Virus record (IMG/VR): IMGVR_UViG_3300032116_022045
Length of the DNA stretch: 64,000 nucleotides
DNA from: a virus
Taxonomy: Duplodnaviria > Caudoviricetes
Strand: one strand, 5' to 3'
Shown here piece by piece: positions 2,308 to 60,802 of the stretch. The position numbers and the translations under genes are program-made. Position 1 is the stretch's first letter; every line of letters starts with the position of its first letter. The notes under the pieces are model-generated. The model made no database searches, had not been told where the DNA came from, and was given only the letters and a program-made list of their open reading frames with translations.

Positions 2308-3474
2308 ATGGAAACAATCAAACAATTAGAAAATCAAATAACACAAGCAAATGAAGTTATTGATAGATTAAATAACAAAGACTTCAATTTTTATTTCTTT
2401 ACCTTAGATACAAAAGGTACACCAACAGCAGGTATTGCAAATATCTATGAACATGTTAAACTTCTTAATAACTTAGGTATTAAAGCACATATCTTACATG
2501 AAAAAAATGATTATAAATTAATTGGAGATGAAAACGGTATGGGTATTTCAGATTGGCTTGGTGAAGAATATGCTAAATTATCACATATTTCAATCGAAAG
2601 CCAACAATTAAACATCACACCAGCTGATTTTATTGTTATTCCTGAAATATTTTCAAATATTATGGAACAAGTTAAAACATTCCCATGTAAGAAAATTGTT
2701 CTATGCCAAAATTATGATTATTTGTTAGAATTACTACCAATTGCAAAAAGATGGAATACTGATTATAATTTTAATGATGTTATCACCACTACAACTAAAC
2801 AAGCAATTTACGTTAGTAATTTGTTCCCTTCTATTAGAACACATGTAGTACCAGTTTCAATCCCTAAATACTTCCAACCAAATGAAAAACCAAAAATTCC
2901 TATGGTTGCTATGTTAACTAGAAATCAAACTGATGCTATTAAAATTGCAAAATCATTCTATCTACAATACCCAATGTATAAATGGATTACATTTAAAGAT
3001 ATGAGAGGATTGTCTAGAGAAATGTTTGCTAAAGAATTGGCTAAATGTTGTTTGGCTGTATGGATTGATGACCCATCTGGATTTGGTACTTTCCCATTAG
3101 AAGCATTTGAATGTAATACACCTGTTATCGGCAAAATACCAAATATGGTGCCAGAATGGATGGAAAAAACAGATGAAGAAAATAATACATTCATTAGAAA
3201 TAATGGTGTTTGGACAAACACTACATTAAATATCCCTGAATTAATTGCAACGTATATTAAAGTATGGTTGGAAGATTCAGTACCATCAGATTTGTTAAAT
3301 GGTATGGAAGAATCAAAAGGACAATATACCGAAGAAAAACAAGCAAATGCTTTATCTGAAGTATATGATGGAATCATTAAAAATAGAGTAATTGAGTTAT
3401 CTGCACTTAGAGATAAGTTAGCTTCTGACTTAGTTAATGTTAACACAGAATTACAAAACGTTAATAAACAATAA
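2308..3474 (+). CDS. GT-B fold glycosyltransferase (GT4-like)
   Basis: GIANIYEHVKLLN N-terminus; DDPSGFGTFPLEAFECNTPVIG resembles the GT4 E-x7-E donor motif. Confidence 0.65.
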   Translation: METIKQLENQITQANEVIDRLNNKDFNFYFFTLDTKGTPTAGIANIYEHVKLLNNLGIKAHILHEKNDYKLIGDENGMGISDWLGEEYAKLSHISIESQQLNITPADFIVIPEIFSNIMEQVKTFPCKKIVLCQNYDYLLELLPIAKRWNTDYNFNDVITTTTKQAIYVSNLFPSIRTHVVPVSIPKYFQPNEKPKIPMVAMLTRNQTDAIKIAKSFYLQYPMYKWITFKDMRGLSREMFAKELAKCCLAVWIDDPSGFGTFPLEAFECNTPVIGKIPNMVPEWMEKTDEENNTFIRNNGVWTNTTLNIPELIATYIKVWLEDSVPSDLLNGMEESKGQYTEEKQANALSEVYDGIIKNRVIELSALRDKLASDLVNVNTELQNVNKQ

Positions 3475-3497
3475 CAATTATTTAAACATAAAAAAAT

Positions 3498-11901: not shown

Positions 11902-13800
11902 TTATCTCAATTCAGCAACATTGAATGTAGGTATACCATCTACACGTACATGGCCATAGAACCTATTGTTCACAACCTTCTTAGCGTAACGTGTCATGAT
12001 TCCTTTAACAGGAGCAAAGTTAAATGGATTGTACATAGTTGGGGTTAACTGAAGAGGTACGTATGGAGCGTAGATGTAACCAGTATCCAACAATGATTTA
12101 CCTTTATGACCGATAATCACAGAGTAAGCTGGGGAGTATGGGTCACGATAAACTTGGTAACGACCACTTAAAGAACCGATTCTCTCAATACCCATGTTAT
12201 ATTGGTCTTGCTCTGGATTTGCATCAGATACGTGGAAGTATTCTAAGTCATCGAATACAGCTGAAATTTCAGAAGATACAACGATAAAGTTAGCACCACC
12301 ACGAAGAGTAGATTTATGGATTTGAGCAGAGATTTGGTTAATTCTTGTGATAAGAGTTTGATTCCAGTCTTTCTGAGTATAAGGTGCAGCAGCAGAAGAT
12401 GCTTTTCTCCAACCATTATAGTCCCAACGCAATTGCCATGCAGCAGCTTTACGAAGGTCTCTTAAGATTTCACGGTCAATCTCAGCAGCTACTTGTTCAG
12501 ACAACATAGCAGTTAATTCAGCTTCAGCATCAATGTTGTGGAATGCACTAACGTCTTGTGCTAATTCTGGAGACCAAGTTGCACGTAATTTTCTTTCTTC
12601 AACAGAAACAACAACTTCATCAAGTTTAAAGGAAACTTCACCAAGTTCAGTTTCAAGTTCTAAAGAAGCGTATTCAGCCCAAGCGAAAACGTATGCAGGG
12701 TTAGTAGTTAAACCAGATACGGAGTTTGCAATACCAGTAGCTGGAGAAGTAGTACCAGTTGCACCAACGTAACCATCATAAGTAGAAGTACCAGCTTTAG
12801 CAGTACCAGAAGCGGTAGTACCTACAGGGTGACGAAGGTCAAGCTCGATATACATTACACCAGCAGGAGATACTAAAGTACCTTTATTTTGAACGATAGC
12901 TTTACCATACTGTTGAGTTACAAGTCTAAATGGAACTTCACCACCAGCAGCTACAACAACGTTACCATCTGGGTCAGTAATAGCGTTACTAGTAACACAA
13001 ATTAAAGAAGCTAAGAAAGATTCAGTATCAATGTTGTTACCATCTGGGCCAGTTAATACTTCAGCACCATTAGCAGCACCAGCACCACCTGAGAAACCAG
13101 AAAGACCAACGATAACGCTTCTTACAGTACCATCTTGTGCAGTAGGAAGAATGTTACCACCAGTAGTTGCACTAAAGGAACCATCATTAGTAAATACATA
13201 TGCTTGAAGAGCAGACATATTAATACTCTTAATAGTAAGGGTACCTTTAGAGTTATCAAACATACCGTCATTGTAGAAAATGTCGTATAAGTTTTTAGCC
13301 ATAAACTGAGTTAAAGGCTGAGAAGCTTTAGTTACAGCAACTGGAAGTGCAGCAGCAGTAGCAACACCGTTGTGTTCACCATTAAGACCAGTGTGAGCAG
13401 AATAAGTTGTACCATAAGGTAAAGTTGCATAATCATTACCAGCAACACCATTACCGTCAACACGGCTAGAAGTTTGTGGTACGAAGTAGAACAATTTACC
13501 GATTGGCATGTTCATTGCTTGTACAGATACGATATCATTAGCAAGCAATTTAGAGAAAACACGTCTTACGATAGGAAACACTACAGTTTCAAAAGAACCA
13601 GAACTGGTTGCTGTAGTAGATTCAGTCAATAAGTTAGAAGCTTGATTTTCGTACAACTGTGCGATGTTTTCTTTAACGTGGCCTTTAAGACCTTCGAGGA
13701 AGCCTAAGCTATCCCATTTTTCTTGGGTTTCTTTACGGATTGCTTTCATATGGTTTAATCCGATATTTCCCACTTGTCCAGAAGTTAATAAATGTGACAT
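11902..13800 (-). CDS. gp23: major capsid protein (T4 gp23-like)
   Basis: FPIVRRVFSKLLANDIVSVQAM; RKLRATWSPELAQD; EIDREI; YAPYVPL; KGIMTRYA; strong high-expression codon bias. Confidence 0.96.
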   Translation of the reverse strand: MSHLLTSGQVGNIGLNHMKAIRKETQEKWDSLGFLEGLKGHVKENIAQLYENQASNLLTESTTATSSGSFETVVFPIVRRVFSKLLANDIVSVQAMNMPIGKLFYFVPQTSSRVDGNGVAGNDYATLPYGTTYSAHTGLNGEHNGVATAAALPVAVTKASQPLTQFMAKNLYDIFYNDGMFDNSKGTLTIKSINMSALQAYVFTNDGSFSATTGGNILPTAQDGTVRSVIVGLSGFSGGAGAANGAEVLTGPDGNNIDTESFLASLICVTSNAITDPDGNVVVAAGGEVPFRLVTQQYGKAIVQNKGTLVSPAGVMYIELDLRHPVGTTASGTAKAGTSTYDGYVGATGTTSPATGIANSVSGLTTNPAYVFAWAEYASLELETELGEVSFKLDEVVVSVEERKLRATWSPELAQDVSAFHNIDAEAELTAMLSEQVAAEIDREILRDLRKAAAWQLRWDYNGWRKASSAAAPYTQKDWNQTLITRINQISAQIHKSTLRGGANFIVVSSEISAVFDDLEYFHVSDANPEQDQYNMGIERIGSLSGRYQVYRDPYSPAYSVIIGHKGKSLLDTGYIYAPYVPLQLTPTMYNPFNFAPVKGIMTRYAKKVVNNRFYGHVRVDGIPTFNVAELR

Positions 13801-17847: not shown

Positions 17848-20800
17848 TTATTCATCTAACATTTTATCAATTTCATTTATTATCTGATTGATATCGTTAT
17901 TTATCTTGACATTTTTATCAATAATTTTAATATTATCCATTTTTTTATTTACGTCCAGACCATCAACAGATTCAATAAGGTCAACAAACCTATTTTTATA
18001 TTTATTGGTTCTATTAACTAATTTATTAGTCAATAATTTTTTTTCCTCTGTTATTAATTTTAACCCTTCTGTTAATGTTTCACTAGCCTCACCACCTGCT
18101 GGCGCTTCTGGTGCAGCAGCTTCACCACCTTCTGGTGTCTCACCACCTGTCTCACCACCTAATTCTGGTGTTTCGCCACCTTCTGGCGTTTCTGGTGTTG
18201 TACCACCTAATCCACCACCTAGACCTCCACCGCCTCCGCCACCAAATGATGGTGTTGCAGTTTCAGTGCTAGCAGCAGCTTCACCACCGCCTTTTAAAGC
18301 AGCTTCATAATCACCATATATTTTATCAACATCATCAAACATACCAGTATGCTTAATAACATTAGCTGTATTAGCTATTTCACCAGATGCGGCTTTTTCC
18401 ATTCTTTGTTCTAATAAATCTTTTTTAATTTCATCATTAGACCAACCTAAAATTTCTCTATGCGCCCTTGTCCAAGACATAGTACCAAAACCATTACCAA
18501 TATCTGAAACAGCGTCTTTAAGTAATGTTATTTTTTGTTGTAGATGTTCAATTTTAAGCATTTCAGCTTGTGTTGATGGATTGTTTAATGTTAATGAAAA
18601 ATTATCCAAATCATCTTCAAAACCTAATAAATATAAATGTATAATAGCAATCTTATTAAGTTCTTGTAACATTGATTGTTGTACTCTATTTACAGTTCTT
18701 GAAAAACGTATATCTTGTAATGCTAAATTTTTACCTTCACCAGATGTTTCATCAAAACCTAAAAATGGTTTAGGTATTCTTAACGCAGTAAATAAATTAT
18801 TTCTAAGGTATTCTATATCTGCTATTTGGTCCAAATTAGACGCACCTGGTAAAGTATCTATAGGATTTGGTGCATCTTCTGAACGAACTGGAATAAAGAA
18901 ATCTTGGTCGTTTGATAATTGATTAAATCTTAAATCCATTTGACCAGTTTGAGAATCAATTATTGGTGTTCTTTTAAATCTATCAGCAATTTCATTAACA
19001 TAAGCTGGTACATCAGCATCATCAATATTACCAACATAAATTTTATAAACTCTTCTTTCTGGTGCTCTAGTCACACGATATACTAACATTGAATCTTCAG
19101 CTAAAATAAGCTGTTTCCATATACGTCTAGCCTTTTCTAAAATAGATGTTCCGTAAGGTAATCTTCTATCATCACCTAATAATCTAAAGTGAGCCATTTG
19201 CCATGAATTAAATTCAACATCACGACCTCTCCAATAAAATTTAACTTTGTCTGAATTTGGAACATTATTATTAACACTATGACTTCCAGAAATCATATCA
19301 AATAATCCGCTTTCTCTTCTCTCCATTTCATAATTAGGCATTTGTTTAGCGCCAATTATACCATGTTTATCATTAACATTAAGAAAAACGAAATTATCAC
19401 CATATTTACAATTTGACAAAAACACACCAGAAGTTCTTGAATATGAACTATTTGAATCAAACCCACAGACTGGAAAATTGTGTCTATCATGTTCACCATT
19501 TGGCCCGACAGCTTCTAAACAATAAACATCAGCTGTTTCATTTAATTTAATAACAGAAATTACTTTATGATTAATAACTTTAGTTTTTGTTTTACCCTCA
19601 AAAATAGCTTTGCATTTTAAATATTCTTTATCTAAAATTATTTCTGGTTTAATACTAAAAACAAATTCAAAATAATTTTTATTTGTTTTTCTAAAAATTA
19701 ATTTATTTAAAGTTGTCGTGTTAATTGATTTAGTTATATCTTTTCTAAGTGTGTAGGTCTCTTTTAATAAATTGATAAATTCTTGGTCTGTTTTTAATAA
19801 TTTAGCTAATTTATTAATACCTATATAATTTTGGTTATTTATAATAATATTAGAAATATAATTTAAACACGCATGACTAATTTCAATAGTCATACCTTTT
19901 TTAGTTTTTTTAATAAAATCTTTGTTTGACCAATTAACTAACATTTTATTTGAGCGTATTTCATTATGTTCTGTGTGTAAATCACTATTATTATACAACT
20001 CAAAAAATTTTGGGTAAACACCAGACATTTCTTCAGATAAACGTTTTTTTCTCTTATCTGACCTTAAATATTTATCAATACCTTCTAATCTTTTCTTTAT
20101 AACTTCTGGTTTTTTACGATACTCGTTTAAATTTTTAGATAATTTTTCATGCAAATTAGAATGTTCATTAAAACTCATTCTTTTTAAATTATTTGGGTTA
20201 TTATCTCTTTTTTTAAAATTAATATGGTGTGTTAACCATTTTTCACCGCTAATTTTTTCTTTTTCAGAATCAATTAGACAATTTTTAGCGATTATTCTAT
20301 GAGTATATTCATATTTATCACTACTAGGGTTATAAATTTTTTCATAACCATTTAATTTACCATAGTTTTCTACACTAGTTTTTGTGTAAAACGGCATTAA
20401 AGACTGACCTTCAGTTAATTCATCAGCTCGTTTAAAAGAACCGTCTCTAAGCATATATTCATGGTCTGGTGTTGTATCAATATAAGTACCATCATCTAAT
20501 GTTACCCTATATAATTCACTATTTCGTCTGGTTAAATCACACCAAACTATTTTACTTGGAACAATAGCCTTAGTAACATCTTGAATAGCATATGACCAAA
20601 CTTCTTCACCATTTTTAACTCTATTAGATAATTCTTTAATTGTTATTTCTGTACCATCTAATAATGGGATAATACTATTTTCTCTAATAGGTGTATTTCT
20701 TGTCCACATAGGTAATGATGTATGTATATCTAATCTATTAAAAAATAAATCTTGTAATATTGTTTTAACACGATTACTTTCAGAATAAACATTTAATACT

Positions 20801-21153
20801 TTTCCTTTATCATTAACTGTTGTTGCTTCTTCCATAATAATATCAAGAGCAGCAGCAATGATTGGATAAAATTCCATAGCTTCAAAATCAGCATAAGAAC
20901 CTATACGAGTTGTTTCATAATTAATTGATTGTTGATAAAGTCCGTTTTCGACTTTTTTCCACATTTGAGACAAATATTTATTTTGTTGTGCTTGTAATTT
21001 CGCCAACTCATATTCTCTCTTATCTGTGGTTTTTAATAATTCTTTACCTATATTAAATCTTTGTGGTTGATTATATACATTCTTTAATTTAGCAGAATCT
21101 GGGCCAATTACTTGACCTAATCTTTGAAATATTGTTAATTTTTTATCAGACAT
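17848..21153 (-). CDS. gp20: portal protein (T4 gp20-like) with an HNH-containing intein
   Basis: Exteins WTRNT|CKYGDNF; LILAEDSMLVYRVTRAPERRVYKIYVGN; DTLPGASNLDQIADIEYL; ALRIPKPFL. Confidence 0.93.
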   Translation of the reverse strand: MSDKKLTIFQRLGQVIGPDSAKLKNVYNQPQRFNIGKELLKTTDKREYELAKLQAQQNKYLSQMWKKVENGLYQQSINYETTRIGSYADFEAMEFYPIIAAALDIIMEEATTVNDKGKVLNVYSESNRVKTILQDLFFNRLDIHTSLPMWTRNTPIRENSIIPLLDGTEITIKELSNRVKNGEEVWSYAIQDVTKAIVPSKIVWCDLTRRNSELYRVTLDDGTYIDTTPDHEYMLRDGSFKRADELTEGQSLMPFYTKTSVENYGKLNGYEKIYNPSSDKYEYTHRIIAKNCLIDSEKEKISGEKWLTHHINFKKRDNNPNNLKRMSFNEHSNLHEKLSKNLNEYRKKPEVIKKRLEGIDKYLRSDKRKKRLSEEMSGVYPKFFELYNNSDLHTEHNEIRSNKMLVNWSNKDFIKKTKKGMTIEISHACLNYISNIIINNQNYIGINKLAKLLKTDQEFINLLKETYTLRKDITKSINTTTLNKLIFRKTNKNYFEFVFSIKPEIILDKEYLKCKAIFEGKTKTKVINHKVISVIKLNETADVYCLEAVGPNGEHDRHNFPVCGFDSNSSYSRTSGVFLSNCKYGDNFVFLNVNDKHGIIGAKQMPNYEMERRESGLFDMISGSHSVNNNVPNSDKVKFYWRGRDVEFNSWQMAHFRLLGDDRRLPYGTSILEKARRIWKQLILAEDSMLVYRVTRAPERRVYKIYVGNIDDADVPAYVNEIADRFKRTPIIDSQTGQMDLRFNQLSNDQDFFIPVRSEDAPNPIDTLPGASNLDQIADIEYLRNNLFTALRIPKPFLGFDETSGEGKNLALQDIRFSRTVNRVQQSMLQELNKIAIIHLYLLGFEDDLDNFSLTLNNPSTQAEMLKIEHLQQKITLLKDAVSDIGNGFGTMSWTRAHREILGWSNDEIKKDLLEQRMEKAASGEIANTANVIKHTGMFDDVDKIYGDYEAALKGGGEAAASTETATPSFGGGGGGGLGGGLGGTTPETPEGGETPELGGETGGETPEGGEAAAPEAPAGGEASETLTEGLKLITEEKKLLTNKLVNRTNKYKNRFVDLIESVDGLDVNKKMDNIKIIDKNVKINNDINQIINEIDKMLDE
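19411..20691 (-). mobile_element. 427-aa intein with HNH endonuclease; atypical (Pro1, block-F Cys, Ser-Asn end)
   Basis: PIRENSIIPLLDG (block A), TTPDHEY (block B), HHINFKKRDNNPNNL (HNH), VYCLEAV (block F), GVFLSN/C (block G). Confidence 0.88.
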
Positions 21154-42835: not shown

Positions 42836-45328
42836 ATGAATAGAGAAGTTGAACCAAAAGTTAAAATAATTATCACAAATGCCAGTAAAGAGGCTCTTAA
42901 TCTTGATGATAATAAGTTAAGGCCAGAACATATATTGTTATCTATGTTAAACGATAATAATAATGGATGTACAACAATATTAAAAAAATTAAAAATAGAT
43001 GTTGATGAATTATATGATAGAATAATTGATTTTATCAAAAGAAATGATGTCTTACCTAAAATAAAAATTACTAGGCGTACACCACCATTTTCAGATGAAA
43101 CAAAAAAATTAATTGTTTTATTGGATAAAGAATGTGAAAAATTAAATGATAATATAATTGATACAACACATATAATGTTAGTATATTTGTCAATGAAATC
43201 ACCAATAAATGATTTATTAAATGTGCACTACTCGCTAGACTATAATAAATTTAAAAACGAAATTATGAGTAATATGAATAATGAAAAAAACAATGTATTT
43301 AGTGACGATAATGATAACGACATTGAATATCTTAAAAAGAGAAAAGTTGATGATAAATCTAAAACACCTGTTTTAGATAATTTCTGTAAAGATTTATCTA
43401 AATCAGCAGAAAAAAATGAACTTGACCCAGTTATTGGTAGAGAAAAAGAAATTAAAAGAATTTCTCAAGTTTTAAGTAGAAGAAAAAAAAATAACCCAAT
43501 TTTAATCGGTGAAGCTGGAACTGGTAAAACAGCAATAGTTGAAGGGTTAGCTCAATTAATAAAAAATAATAACGCACCAAGAACCCTACAAAATAAAAGA
43601 ATATATAGTTTGGATATGGGGTTGGTTGTGGCTGGTACTAAATACCGTGGACAATTTGAAGAAAGAATGAAAGCCATTCTTGAGGAATGTAAAGCAAATA
43701 AACATATTATATTGTTTATTGATGAATTACATACAATAGTTGGTGCTGGAAATACATCTGGGTCATTAGACGCTTCTAATATATTTAAACCAGCGTTAGC
43801 TAGAGGTGAAATACAAGTTATTGGGGCAACAACATTAGATGAATATCGTGAAAATATAGAAAAAGATAGTGCTTTAACAAGAAGATTTCAACAAATTATG
43901 GTTGAAGAACCTACTTTGGAAGAAACAAAAAATATTTTATTTAATATAAAAGAAAAATACGAAAAACATCACAAAGTAATTTATACTAATGAAGCTATTA
44001 ATGAATGTGTTAAATTAGCCGATAGATATATTACCGATAGAGCAATGCCAGATAAAGCTATTGATATCATGGATGAAGCTGGTGCCTCAACCAATATTAC
44101 CATAGAAAAACCAGAAAATATTAAACTATTAGAAAAAAGAAAACAAGAATTGATGGTGATTAAAAAAGAAGTAGTGTTAAAACAAAAGTATGAAGAAGCA
44201 GCTAAACTAAGAGATGAAGAAAAAAATATTATTGAAGAGTTAAATAAAGCTAACGCTATATGGAATGAAACATTAAGTAATGATGCAACTGAAATAACTG
44301 TAGATATAATCGCTGAAGTTGTTTCTAGTATGACTGGAATACCACTAACTAAAATATCAACAAAAGAAGCTGAAAAACTAATAAACTTAGATAAAGAATT
44401 ATCTAGTAAAGTTATTGGTCAAGATAGTGCTGTAACTAAAGTAGTTAAAGCAATAAAAAGAAGTCGTGTTGGTATTAAAAATAAAAATAAACCTGTCGCT
44501 AGTTTCATTTTTTTAGGAAATAGCGGAACGGGAAAAACTTTTTTAGCTAAATTATTGGCTGAAAAAGTTTATGGTGATGAAGATGCGTTGATAAGATTAG
44601 ATATGTCTGAATATATGGAAAAACATAATGTATCTAGACTTATTGGTTCACCTCCAGGATATGTTGGTCATGAACAAGGTGGTCAATTAACAGAAAAAGT
44701 TAGAAGAAAACCACATTGCGTTATTTTATTTGATGAAATAGAAAAAGCTCACGAAGATATTTTTAATTTACTCCTACAAGTATTAGATGAAGGACAGTTA
44801 ACTGATGGATTGGGTAGAAAAATTAATTTTAAAAACGCATTAATAATCCTAACTTCTAATATCGGTGTTAAAGAAGTAAACTCATTTGGTAAAACTATGG
44901 GGTTTGAAACATCTAAATCAATAATTAATGAAGAAAATAAAGTACGTTCAATTATTGATAAAGCATTAAAGAAAAAATTTAAACCAGAATTTTTGAATAG
45001 AATTGATGAAGCAATTACATTTAATAGATTAACAAAAGAAGATATTCAAAAAATAGTCTATTTAGAAATAAATAAACTTGAAGAAAGATTAAAAGAACTA
45101 AACTTTAAACTTGAAATAACAAAAGAAGCAGTAGAATTTTTGGGTGATGAAGGTTATGATGAAAACTATGGTGCCAGACCATTAAATAGAACAATACAAT
45201 ATCATATCGAAGACCAAATCTCAGATGAAATATTAAATGGTAATATTAAAGATGGTGACACAATACTAATATCTTTTAATAAACAAAAAAAATTAATACA
45301 AATAAAAAGTAAAAAAACAAAAAAATGA
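42836..45328 (+). CDS. clpC: ClpC/ClpB-family AAA+ chaperone
   Basis: Clp N-domain; GEAGTGKT; LFIDELH; UVR-like middle domain; GNSGTGKT; RLIGSPPGYVG; MGF loop; YGARPL. Confidence 0.9.
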   Translation: MNREVEPKVKIIITNASKEALNLDDNKLRPEHILLSMLNDNNNGCTTILKKLKIDVDELYDRIIDFIKRNDVLPKIKITRRTPPFSDETKKLIVLLDKECEKLNDNIIDTTHIMLVYLSMKSPINDLLNVHYSLDYNKFKNEIMSNMNNEKNNVFSDDNDNDIEYLKKRKVDDKSKTPVLDNFCKDLSKSAEKNELDPVIGREKEIKRISQVLSRRKKNNPILIGEAGTGKTAIVEGLAQLIKNNNAPRTLQNKRIYSLDMGLVVAGTKYRGQFEERMKAILEECKANKHIILFIDELHTIVGAGNTSGSLDASNIFKPALARGEIQVIGATTLDEYRENIEKDSALTRRFQQIMVEEPTLEETKNILFNIKEKYEKHHKVIYTNEAINECVKLADRYITDRAMPDKAIDIMDEAGASTNITIEKPENIKLLEKRKQELMVIKKEVVLKQKYEEAAKLRDEEKNIIEELNKANAIWNETLSNDATEITVDIIAEVVSSMTGIPLTKISTKEAEKLINLDKELSSKVIGQDSAVTKVVKAIKRSRVGIKNKNKPVASFIFLGNSGTGKTFLAKLLAEKVYGDEDALIRLDMSEYMEKHNVSRLIGSPPGYVGHEQGGQLTEKVRRKPHCVILFDEIEKAHEDIFNLLLQVLDEGQLTDGLGRKINFKNALIILTSNIGVKEVNSFGKTMGFETSKSIINEENKVRSIIDKALKKKFKPEFLNRIDEAITFNRLTKEDIQKIVYLEINKLEERLKELNFKLEITKEAVEFLGDEGYDENYGARPLNRTIQYHIEDQISDEILNGNIKDGDTILISFNKQKKLIQIKSKKTKK

Positions 45329-58598: not shown

Positions 58599-58672
58599 GG
58601 GGGCACATGTTCCAAGGCTGGCGAAAATGATTTGCAATCAATTTGTGAAGAGTTCAATTCTCTTTGTCTCCA
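58599..58672 (+). tRNA. tRNA-Ala(TGC)
   Basis: GGGGGCA/TGTCTCC acceptor with G3:U70 and A73; loop TTTGCAA. Confidence 0.8.
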
Positions 58673-59457: not shown

Positions 59458-59961
59458 ATGAATAAACAAATAATATTAGAAACCATTCGTAAAGAATTTT
59501 TAATTAAAGAAAATTCAAAATACGATAACTATAAAAAAAATTGGAACTACGCTGGAAATTCTTATACTGACTTAACTATCGAAGAACCACTGAAAATTAA
59601 AACATGGACCTTCCCAAATCAAAATGGCTTCTATTTAGAATTTTTTTTTAATAATACCTTAATAGGTCATTATCACTCATTTTATGACCAAGATGATGGT
59701 TTTATGAATGATATGGAAATAAAAGATGATTACCAAAATAAAGGTTTCGGCAAAATATTACTTTTGTCAGCAATAGATGTTGGTAATAATTATATGGGCT
59801 TCTTCTCATCTGATACTAGATGGTTAGCACCAAATCAATCTAAAATCTATATCTACCTAAAAAAAGAAAATATAATATCTGATAATGACGAAATTATTGA
59901 TTATGATAAAGCTAATAAACTAATCTCAATAATAACTGAAAAAAACTTGACTTCTAAATAA
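59458..59961 (+). CDS. GNAT-like protein with head-targeting-like N-terminus
   Basis: MEIKDDYQNKGFGKILL motif A; late motif at 59429. Confidence 0.6.
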   Translation: MNKQIILETIRKEFLIKENSKYDNYKKNWNYAGNSYTDLTIEEPLKIKTWTFPNQNGFYLEFFFNNTLIGHYHSFYDQDDGFMNDMEIKDDYQNKGFGKILLLSAIDVGNNYMGFFSSDTRWLAPNQSKIYIYLKKENIISDNDEIIDYDKANKLISIITEKNLTSK

Positions 59962-59977
59962 TTATTTAGTATATTTG
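59947..59977 (+). promoter_or_regulatory. Bacteroidota-type sigma70 promoter for the interrupted tRNA
   Basis: TTG-N20-TATATTTG. Confidence 0.75.
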
Positions 59978-59985
59978 TATTATAT

Positions 59986-60802
59986 TGCGGAAGAGTGAAA
60001 CGGATAATCATTCAAGGCTCATACAGTTTTAAAATACTGAGAAATATTCGAACCAATAATAAAATTTAACTATTAGGTTCGTTTTTATTATTTTCACATA
60101 TTTATTAATATGGGAAAGTATAATAAAGAAGAATTAGAAAAATTAATTTTAGAAGAGAATAAGAGTTATTCCGCTATAGGTAGATTGTACAATGTTTCTG
60201 GTGGTGCAATTAAAAAAGTTGCTAAGAAATATGGTATTCCATTACCAAGACGAAGAAAAGTTAATGAAAATGAAGTGTTTAGTCGTAAAGGCTATCGAAG
60301 TAACAGTTTAGTTAATAAAGTTAACGACACTGAATTCATTTCAATAATAAAAGAGTCTAAACAATGGGTTGATGTGGCAGATAAATTAGGATATAAAAAC
60401 TATTTATCTAATAACATCAAAGATTCAATTAGAAATAGGTGCTCGATGTTAGGTATAGAGCTAAATTTAGTCCAAAGACTAGGTATTTCTGATTTAACAA
60501 AAGGTGAACTTTTTAATCATCGTAAGAATTGGCAATCAGCAAGGTCGGCAATTCAAAAAGATGCTAGAAAGGTTTATTTCGAATCTAATACAACACCAAG
60601 TTGTGCAATCTGTGGTTATTCAAACCATGTTGAAGTGGCTCACATTAAATCTGTGTCAGAGTTTAATGTAAGTACACCGATAGTAGTAATAAATTTGTTA
60701 TCAAATCTCATAGGATTATGCCCTAACCATCATTGGGAATATGATAACGGATTCTTGGAATTATAACCTTAGAGATAGTGGGTTCAACTCCCACATCCGC
60801 TA
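59986..60802 (+). tRNA. tRNA(CAT), Met/fMet-like, interrupted by a 742-nt insertion (exons 59986-60023 and 60766-60802)
   Basis: 5' half TGCGGAA...CAAGGCTCATA; 3' half ACCTTAGAGATAGTGGG-TTCAACT-CCCACATCCGCTA. Confidence 0.8.
60110..60766 (+). CDS. HNH endonuclease with N-terminal HTH-like segments, inside the tRNA insertion
   Basis: CAICG...VEVAHIK...NLIGLCPNHHWEYD; its TAA overlaps the 3' junction. Confidence 0.88.
   Translation: MGKYNKEELEKLILEENKSYSAIGRLYNVSGGAIKKVAKKYGIPLPRRRKVNENEVFSRKGYRSNSLVNKVNDTEFISIIKESKQWVDVADKLGYKNYLSNNIKDSIRNRCSMLGIELNLVQRLGISDLTKGELFNHRKNWQSARSAIQKDARKVYFESNTTPSCAICGYSNHVEVAHIKSVSEFNVSTPIVVINLLSNLIGLCPNHHWEYDNGFLEL

Follow-up and report, generated by a model that had tools for sequence, protein, structure and literature searches.

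A tRNA(CAT) gene of a bacterial virus is split within its anticodon by a structured HNH-endonuclease element that may be an intron of a new kind

The DNA examined here, called the window throughout, is the 64,000-nucleotide (nt) stretch of IMG/VR virus record IMGVR_UViG_3300032116_022045 (Duplodnaviria; Caudoviricetes), an AT-rich phage sequence of about 26% GC that encodes a terminase, a portal protein, a major head protein and a tRNA cluster. The phage was detected in freshwater, lake-water and "fungus metagenome" runs. Within it a tRNA(CAT) gene is divided into two halves by an intervening element that consists of a leader and an open reading frame (ORF) for an HNH endonuclease. The locus is laid out as follows:

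59947..59975, plus strand: sigma-70-like promoter match, TTGACT-17-TATATT (10/12 matches), just 5' of the tRNA
59987..60020, plus strand: tRNA(CAT) exon 1, comprising the acceptor 5' strand, D arm, anticodon-stem 5' strand and C32 U33 C34; the uninterrupted homologue is that of contigs L030/L031
60021..60762, plus strand: 742-nt intervening element (89-nt leader and HNH ORF) between C34 and A35, with the junction set by relatives whose inserts start with TTAC or ACAC
60110..60766, plus strand: HNH_2 homing-endonuclease gene, 218 amino acids (aa), with a C-terminal HNH; its stop codon is tRNA U36 A37 A38
60763..60801, plus strand: tRNA(CAT) exon 2, comprising A35 U36 A37 A38, the anticodon-stem 3' strand, variable loop, T arm, acceptor 3' strand and discriminator

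The splitting of this tRNA(CAT) is real. Two IMG/VR contigs (L030 and L031) carry an identical, unusual 5' half that runs straight into AACCTT.GAGATA to give an uninterrupted tRNA-Met, called by ARAGORN at its default threshold in L031, and a related uninterrupted allele also lies on one contig of DNA run X11; as such homologues occur in other phage contigs, the halves are no chance match. The interrupted form was present in 17 DNA runs (0.93-1.00 of the sampled words) and is therefore no assembly artefact. An initial annotation, made from the sequence of the window, had stated that the two halves rebuild a cloverleaf and had proposed a search for uninterrupted alleles in relatives. Such alleles have now been found. 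The joined form in the window passes ARAGORN at a relaxed threshold only. Its acceptor stem contains the mismatch A6.A67, and just one nucleotide separates the acceptor and D stems; a near-identical copy of the phage in X11 has T, not A, at 60795, which restores an A6-U67 pair. A cmscan search of the locus with RF00005 matched only the T arm and acceptor (16.6 bits), within the true exon 2, and the intron mode of ARAGORN returned only a spurious tRNA-Tyr call. The exact 3'-half pattern had no occurrence in IMG/VR, and blastn of the locus against 50,697 phage records gave no match; tblastn of the HNH protein against phage records gave partial, distant matches only, and no cultured carrier was found. 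The 331-aa product of a flanking gene had a single marginal IMG/VR relative (a 15-residue match, E 5e-4), which was not used as a relative phage. The tRNA had also been said to keep a host promoter: the site at 59947-59975 is indeed there, but promoter-like sites in the region are no more frequent than in shuffled sequence.

In the window the position of the junction is ambiguous by three nucleotides (ATA), as the initial annotation had observed, and the same ambiguity is present in most alleles. It is resolved by four relatives, in which the insert starts with TTAC (L045, L122, L132) or ACAC (L032), exon 2 starting with ATAA in every allele. Since the start of exon 2 is constant and that of the insert varies, the ATA "repeat" is intron sequence; C34/A35 is the sole junction that gives a CAT anticodon in all alleles. 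As read from these relatives, the insertion point is C34/A35, within the anticodon (target GGCTC^ATAACC in the anticodon loop of phage CAU tRNA genes, both initiator-like and other), and not the canonical 37/38 position to which it had been assigned. The corrected junction leaves the insert length of 742 nt as first given and lengthens the leader from 86 to 89 nt; the HNH stop codon, TAA, is tRNA positions 36-38. A transposon with a 3-bp ATA duplication was rejected as an explanation: four alleles have TTA or ACA in place of the "repeat", and no transposase is present. The relaxed-threshold scan for joined halves was too noisy until it was limited to CAT loops, and a search for short mini-intron alleles with the pattern GGCTCATACRGT...ATAACC produced 22 chance matches, none of them in a tRNA context.

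The ORF matches the HNH_2 family (PF13391; Pfam E 4e-7, 30.1 bits, the cut-off being 21) and, among the PHROGs, a group of HNH endonucleases. Its N-terminal part is similar to phage HNH proteins and looks like a putative helix-turn-helix, and residues C165, C168, H178, C204, N206, H207 and H208 are invariant in 21/21 HNH sequences; in a profile search the TagI restriction endonuclease was matched weakly (E 0.011). The recovery of 653 relatives (protein clusters, E<=0.001) from a metagenome protein collection points to a large family, in which the best 120 of the 653 show 55-80% identity and, with few exceptions, have lengths of 213-241 aa. Genes of this family occupy the same site of a tRNA(CAT), behind a conserved leader, in contigs from lakes, rumen, pig gut and human gut. 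There are at least 20 distinct split tRNA(CAT) alleles by count, or about 24 when those recognised by eye are included. Among 99 distinct family loci, 20 are split, 26 adjoin an intact tRNA(CAT) and 41 lie near another tRNA call; the more distant relatives are free-standing, directly upstream or downstream of an intact tRNA(CAT), and many are without the N-terminal domain. Such a distribution is typical of homing endonucleases, here of a family that recognises, and presumably cleaves, the anticodon region of tRNA(CAU) genes. With its intact HNH_2 ORF at the same site in unrelated alleles, the insert is an HNH homing-endonuclease element, as first annotated, and belongs to a large tRNA(CAU)-targeting HNH family of which we could not find an earlier description. 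A literature search, whose coverage is incomplete so that it offers absence of evidence only, likewise returned no described HNH gene in a phage tRNA anticodon without a ribozyme. The leader pattern had 120 chance matches in bacterial genome contigs, none with an HNH gene.

The closest relative of the element, in contig L335, shares 80% amino-acid identity and a closely similar leader, and resides in a quite different, canonical initiator-like tRNA, which suggests that the element moves by homing. More generally, related introns are found in different anticodon stems: the same element occupies the same site in otherwise unrelated alleles, and uninterrupted alleles exist. At the DNA level the element would spread by endonuclease-driven homing into such uninterrupted tRNA(CAT) alleles.

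The family shows several further arrangements. In L069 (about 2960-3480) the gene for a 155-aa short-form HNH protein without the N-terminal domain, behind an AT-rich leader of only 28 nt, interrupts a tRNA with a 5' exon ending in CTG; by its sequence the joined anticodon would be GAT (Ile) instead of CAT. The intact tRNA(CAT) beside the free-standing HNH gene carries a long extra arm in L061, L062 and L068 (e.g. GACAGTATATGCTTGTG), which may protect the carrier's own gene from cleavage. Short tRNA 5' fragments (acceptor and D arm) lie upstream of the free-standing HNH gene in L062, L092, L094, L095 and L108, and a complete but different tRNA(CAT) follows fragment and gene; these fragments look like scars of past recombination at the target. 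A sub-threshold match to a hepatitis delta virus (HDV)-like ribozyme (RF02682, 37 bits against 44, E 0.003) was found at 3678-3741 of L046, a few bases past the 3' end of the split tRNA(CAT); it is positioned as if cutting the tRNA 3' trailer, downstream of the tRNA and not at the junction.

The RNA of the intron is unusually structured, with co-varying helices over the leader, nearly the whole ORF and the region of the catalytic motif. The minimum free energy (MFE) of the window pre-tRNA has a z-score of -6.7 against shuffled sequences, and all 17 of the 17 split introns folded better than their shuffles (z -2.8 to -9.4, mean -5.4). Among the controls, 8 ORF-based stretches of the window averaged -1.7, and 11 HNH genes outside an intact split tRNA (9 free-standing and 2 with decayed halves) averaged -2.0; the rank-sum area under the curve for split introns versus controls is about 0.91, counted by hand and, the sequences being related, without a clean p-value. 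Local MFE z-scores of the final 109 nt alone were unremarkable. The elements of the fold, in which LR denotes the long-range helices, are:

60024..60039, plus strand: hairpin H1 (CAGT/ACTG, A-rich loop), 3 nt past the 5' junction; CAG/CTG changes to CGG/CCG and CGGTG/CACCG
60045..60066, plus strand: LR1 5' strand in the leader (TATTC-GAA-C...; consensus ATATTC GAA CTAAAAT), pairing with ORF codons 12-18
60049..60086, plus strand: hairpin H2 (CGAACC/GGTTCG) followed by a T run, terminator-like and competing with LR1; C-to-T changes keep G.U pairs
60097..60112, plus strand: hairpin CATATT/AATATG including the ATG start codon, a co-varying signal between leader and start region in the global scan
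60143..60163, plus strand: LR1 3' strand, ORF codons 12-18 (consensus ATTTTAG AGCA GAATA), with the conserved unusual codons GAG CAG
60165..60182, plus strand: LR3 5' strand, ORF codons 19-24, pairing with codons 189-193
60441..60461, plus strand: hairpin (c), ORF codons 111-117 (GCTC...GAGC); GCTC/GAGC changes to GTTC/GAAC at synonymous sites
60671..60691, plus strand: LR3 3' strand, ORF codons about 188-194
60689..60754, plus strand: hairpin P-b, codons 194-198 with 212-216, enclosing the codons of the catalytic motif CPNHHW; 8 nt separate its 3' strand from the 3' junction

These helices were assessed by a register-robust self-versus-cross duplex test, in which the pairing of a strand with its own partner is compared with its pairing with the partners of other members. 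It gave p=0.0002 each for H1, LR1, the codon 111-117 hairpin and P-b, and 0.11-0.85 for six arbitrary control pairs, values that overstate independence as the sequences are related; for H2 the test was invalid owing to a gap row. In a global scan of all 9,223 pairs of scan segments P-b and LR3 each lay about 9 standard deviations out. LR3 has 10-14 bp between strands about 510 nt apart and is maintained through non-synonymous co-changes (TCC GTT/AGC GGA, TCC TTT/AAA GGA, TCT CTT/AAG AGA); P-b is likewise maintained through coordinated amino-acid changes (TCC ATT/AAT GGA versus TTT ATT/AAT AAA), and LR1 co-varies in L045, L122, L130, L133 and L137. H2 is missing in the deletion variant L126. 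A further candidate, LR2 (GTTAGG/CCTAAC pairing), had only a small effect (p=0.0014) and is not relied on. Column-wise co-variation raised only the anticodon stem and hairpin (c) above the parallel-orientation control, and RNAalifold recovered local helices only, the two approaches together yielding the anticodon stem, H1, H2 and the codon 111-117 hairpin; the long-range helices were missed by both because their register shifts between members.

The ORF also contains conserved codons that are unusual for an AT-rich gene, namely GAG CAG (15-16), TTA GGT (114-115) and CTC ATA ... TGC CCT AAC (200-206); unsplit relatives have mostly TGT CCN AAT at the last of these sites. From 5' to 3' the junction is followed by 3 nt, H1, a short A-rich linker, LR1 (around H2 and the start codon), a few nucleotides, LR3 (around most of the ORF), a few nucleotides, P-b (around the catalytic motif), 8 nt and the 3' junction, so that the 742 nt are organised as closed domains around a five-way junction, one arm of which is the anticodon stem. 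In split members of both leader types these helices are strong; they are weak in the free-standing L049, L145 and L155 and in L144 and L135 with decayed tRNA halves; in L125, which has decayed exons and is close to the split clade, most helices remain and several signature codons are lost. The conserved, co-varying fold argues for a role of the element at the RNA level.

The structure does not correspond to any of the splicing systems that we sought. Rfam models of group I introns, group II introns and small ribozymes gave no match at E<=10 at the locus or at E<=1 at the junctions of 14 relatives, and covariance models of hammerhead, twister, pistol, hatchet and HDV-like ribozymes gave none at E<=10 in the window, in keeping with the statement of the initial annotation that the insert contains no ribozyme. 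A group I intron of atypical or degenerate form, with a core that lies partly in the coding sequence and goes unrecognised by the Rfam model, would agree with the looping out of the ORF from closing helices, as in group I introns, and with the fact that known bacterial and phage tRNA introns are of group I, some with endonuclease genes (PMC3984707). We nonetheless regard it as very improbable: RF00028, the detection of which had been named as a refuting result for the initial interpretation, had no match in the window (E<=10) or in the 14 relatives (E<=1), the 5' exon ends in C and not U, and the last base of the intron is T or A in every allele and G in none. By eye, the leader sequence TTCGAACTAAAAT resembles the group I "R" element; the roughly 25 nt before this R-like motif are too short for P3-P6. 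A pairing of TATGA with the 5' junction, of the internal guide sequence type, was dismissed for want of co-variation. For group II, the intron start is (A/T)(T/C)AC, with no GUGYG.

The initial annotation had offered, as one of two readings, a protein-spliced intron at 37/38 with a relaxed bulge-helix-bulge (BHB) formed by CTCA and TGAG. In the window the ATA-ambiguous junction and a TGAG that can pair with CTCA do suit such an archaeal or eukaryal type of intron. In relatives, however, the junction is at 34/35 and TGAG is missing from most, being found in few members only; no 3-4-3 BHB motif could be drawn by hand at 34/35 or 37/38, and at 34/35 the anticodon stem would need to be unwound. 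PF01974, the EndA-type splicing endonuclease, was not found in any of four related phage records, of which one is complete, in a search that matched the archaeal controls, and the promoter-like site and phage genes suggest a bacterial host. The relaxed BHB and the 37/38 position are not supported by these data, and we consider an intron of this archaeal or eukaryal type extremely unlikely. Of the two enzymes whose genes had been proposed as worth seeking, the splicing endonuclease was thus absent from these four records and RtcB was present, in the phage G003. Nor is the insert tRNA-shaped, since its ends do not pair with each other: the ATAC... start has no complementarity to the variable 3' ends, and the insert has no tRNA-model match of its own.

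Several observations suggest that the tRNA is nevertheless restored from its halves. In about 24 of about 28 distinct alleles both halves are still capable of forming a cloverleaf, their HNH proteins having diverged to about 50% identity. The anticodon-stem strands, 740 nt apart and no more than 9 nt from the junctions, are paired in every allele, although the stem has more than 8 sequence variants and 4/5 of its pairs have changed on both sides. In L044/L123 the HNH gene has a TGA nonsense codon and the exons are intact. Phage G003, for which the whole 387-kb genome is available, has two other intact CAT tRNAs, but its sole tRNA of the initiator type is the one with the split gene. Carrier phages also encode tRNA-repair ligases: G003 has RtcB and, in addition, three matches to RNA_ligase, while both G001 and G004 have matches of the T4 Rnl1 type. 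Exon 1 and the intron share one RNA-library contig (X18). The invariant ATAA, the ever-paired anticodon stem, the intact exons of the nonsense mutant, the strain variant with the restored acceptor pair and the coupling of the fold to intact exons favour restoration of the tRNA.

On balance we lean slightly towards the view that the element is a true intron, removed from the pre-tRNA by an unknown route that is neither group I nor group II. H1, LR1, LR3 and P-b would close the intron into domains on the anticodon loop and leave the tRNA halves free to form the cloverleaf; excision could then proceed either by cuts at both junctions followed by sealing by a tRNA-repair RNA ligase (of Rnl1 or RtcB type), or by a catalytic activity of the intron fold itself. 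The spliced tRNA would be 73-76 nt long with the junction ...CAAGGCUC-AUAACCUUA.... We give even chances to the more specific proposal that the element is the founding member of a new class of tRNA introns in bacterial viruses, a structured RNA that contains an endonuclease gene and is removed at C34/A35 by a mechanism unknown in bacteria, whether a five-way-junction ribozyme or structure-guided protein cutting with RNA-ligase sealing.

A number of points weigh against removal of the element from the RNA. The spliced product was not observed, and only the unspliced junction appears in metatranscriptome contigs; these may include DNA and would not capture tRNAs. One such RNA-library contig, from X18 (59995-60277), has exon 1 and intron together and crosses the unspliced 5' junction, and the RNA-run contigs together cover 59995-60450, where the exon-exon joint was not seen, a result that says nothing about splicing. 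We know of no bacterial or phage pathway that cuts at C34/A35, and the intron ends have neither the U.G pair and terminal G of group I, nor group II ends, nor a BHB. The joined halves in the window are recognised as tRNA-Met(cat) below the default ARAGORN threshold only. H2 with its T run looks like a terminator inside the leader (a terminator scan did not call it). Large tRNA-rich phages commonly carry RNA ligases, and the 20 window ORFs scanned, of which 18 have >=250 aa, contained none. The exons could also look intact through repeated homing into fresh alleles, and the relatedness of the sequences inflates the apparent significance of the fold. Finally, tRNA halves have decayed beside an intact HNH gene in L125, L144 and probably L135 and L143, which implies that the enzyme gene can persist without a working tRNA. 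According to the initial annotation, decayed halves in relatives together with the absence of a spliced tRNA were to have marked the tRNA as a pseudogene; decayed halves do occur, in these few, the other alleles, about 24 of about 28, being intact.

These points bear on the second reading of the initial annotation, an intronless homing insertion that killed the tRNA, which is a live rival even if we think it less likely. A free-standing, tRNA(CAT)-specific HNH gene would have entered its own recognition site and destroyed a dispensable phage tRNA; it would persist by super-Mendelian homing, the exons would look intact because invasions are recent or recurrent, and the helices would hold down the translation of a toxic nuclease or stabilise its mRNA. 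The lack of a ribozyme, BHB or splicing endonuclease homologue is as expected for such an insertion, as are the mostly free-standing position of the wider HNH family beside tRNA(CAT), the decayed halves with intact HNH genes in L125 and L144, the terminator-like H2 between exon 1 and the ORF, the poor score of the window tRNA and the exclusively unspliced junction of the RNA-library contigs. LR1 and the start-codon hairpin sequester the start region; such sequestration is a device of phage intron endonuclease genes, as in T4 I-TevI. An unspliced insertion must, however, account for a fold that extends over the insert and is tied to intact exons. It leaves unexplained why LR3 and P-b are kept through amino-acid changes, why the helices fade in free-standing and decayed-exon copies, why the anticodon-stem strands are never mismatched though related introns sit in different stems, and why an HNH nonsense mutant has perfect exons.

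Whichever way the RNA is processed, among described systems the element comes closest to the group I intron of cyanobacterial tRNA-fMet, which, in the account of Bonocora and Shub 2001 given in PMC3984707, encodes I-Ssp6803I. Like the window element it is mobile, has its own homing endonuclease and lies in the anticodon loop of an initiator-type tRNA(CAU), but it splices itself as a group I ribozyme and its enzyme is not of the HNH type, whereas the window element has no group I core, is inserted at C34/A35 and encodes an HNH_2 protein. The free-standing homing endonuclease SegB of phage T4 (PMC2330249) is comparable in being encoded by a phage gene that is embedded among tRNA genes and favours its own transmission, and most distant relatives of the window HNH protein are likewise free-standing; SegB, however, is of the GIY-YIG type and lies between genes, in contrast to an HNH gene placed inside a tRNA gene with a conserved RNA fold. 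The "enigmatic" tRNA introns of the Lak megaphages (Devoto et al. 2019, PMC6784885) resemble the element as phage anticodon-loop inserts without a recognised ribozyme, some reportedly at 34/35, but they are short and tRNA-shaped, with excision by RNase P/Z suggested, unlike the unpaired ends and multi-helix junction around an ORF seen here. Archaeal BHB introns, some with homing endonucleases, are also ribozyme-free introns in a stable RNA with an endonuclease gene; they differ in that the window element has no BHB motif and no EndA homologue, and has a bacterial-type phage context.

Some further features of the window and of related contigs are recorded here. The tRNA cluster of the window includes a fifth tRNA at 58601-58672 (plus strand), barely at the Rfam gathering score (29.4 bits) and missed by ARAGORN. 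At 17848-21153 (minus strand) the 1,100-aa portal ORF has PHROG HNH-endonuclease matches at residues 258-343, before the portal domain (661-921), and this stretch may be an in-frame endonuclease, intein or intron insertion. In the 631-aa major head protein ORF (11902-13800, minus strand) the head-protein match spans residues 370-608 only; the GC content at 12-14 kb is 38.5%, against about 26% elsewhere. A gene at 42836-45328 (plus strand) encodes an 830-aa ATP-dependent (Lon-like) protease (phrog_4871, E 6e-256). Among contigs of phages that carry a split tRNA, L339 has a partial GOLLD RNA match at 2262-2701 (57 bits against a gathering score of 150) and L032 has a transfer-messenger RNA at 63-426 (58 bits, above gathering); an 89-nt phage tRNA-Glu(ttc) in G003 (L353-L354; 260842-260930) has a long paired variable arm, unusual for tRNA-Glu.

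The accepted tRNA introns of bacteria and phages are all self-splicing RNAs of group I, and protein-based tRNA splicing is considered a property of archaea and eukaryotes. If the element proves to be spliced, it would reveal either a catalytic RNA of a new kind or a bacterial splicing route of the cut-and-ligate type, and the phage Rnl1 and RtcB ligases would gain a housekeeping substrate. If it is not spliced, it would be a clear case of a selfish endonuclease gene that persists at the cost of the tRNA gene it destroys, and the fold an unusually extensive nuclease-silencing device. On either reading, as tRNA finders miss split genes of this kind, the tRNA inventories of phages, and those of initiator tRNAs especially, are under-counted.

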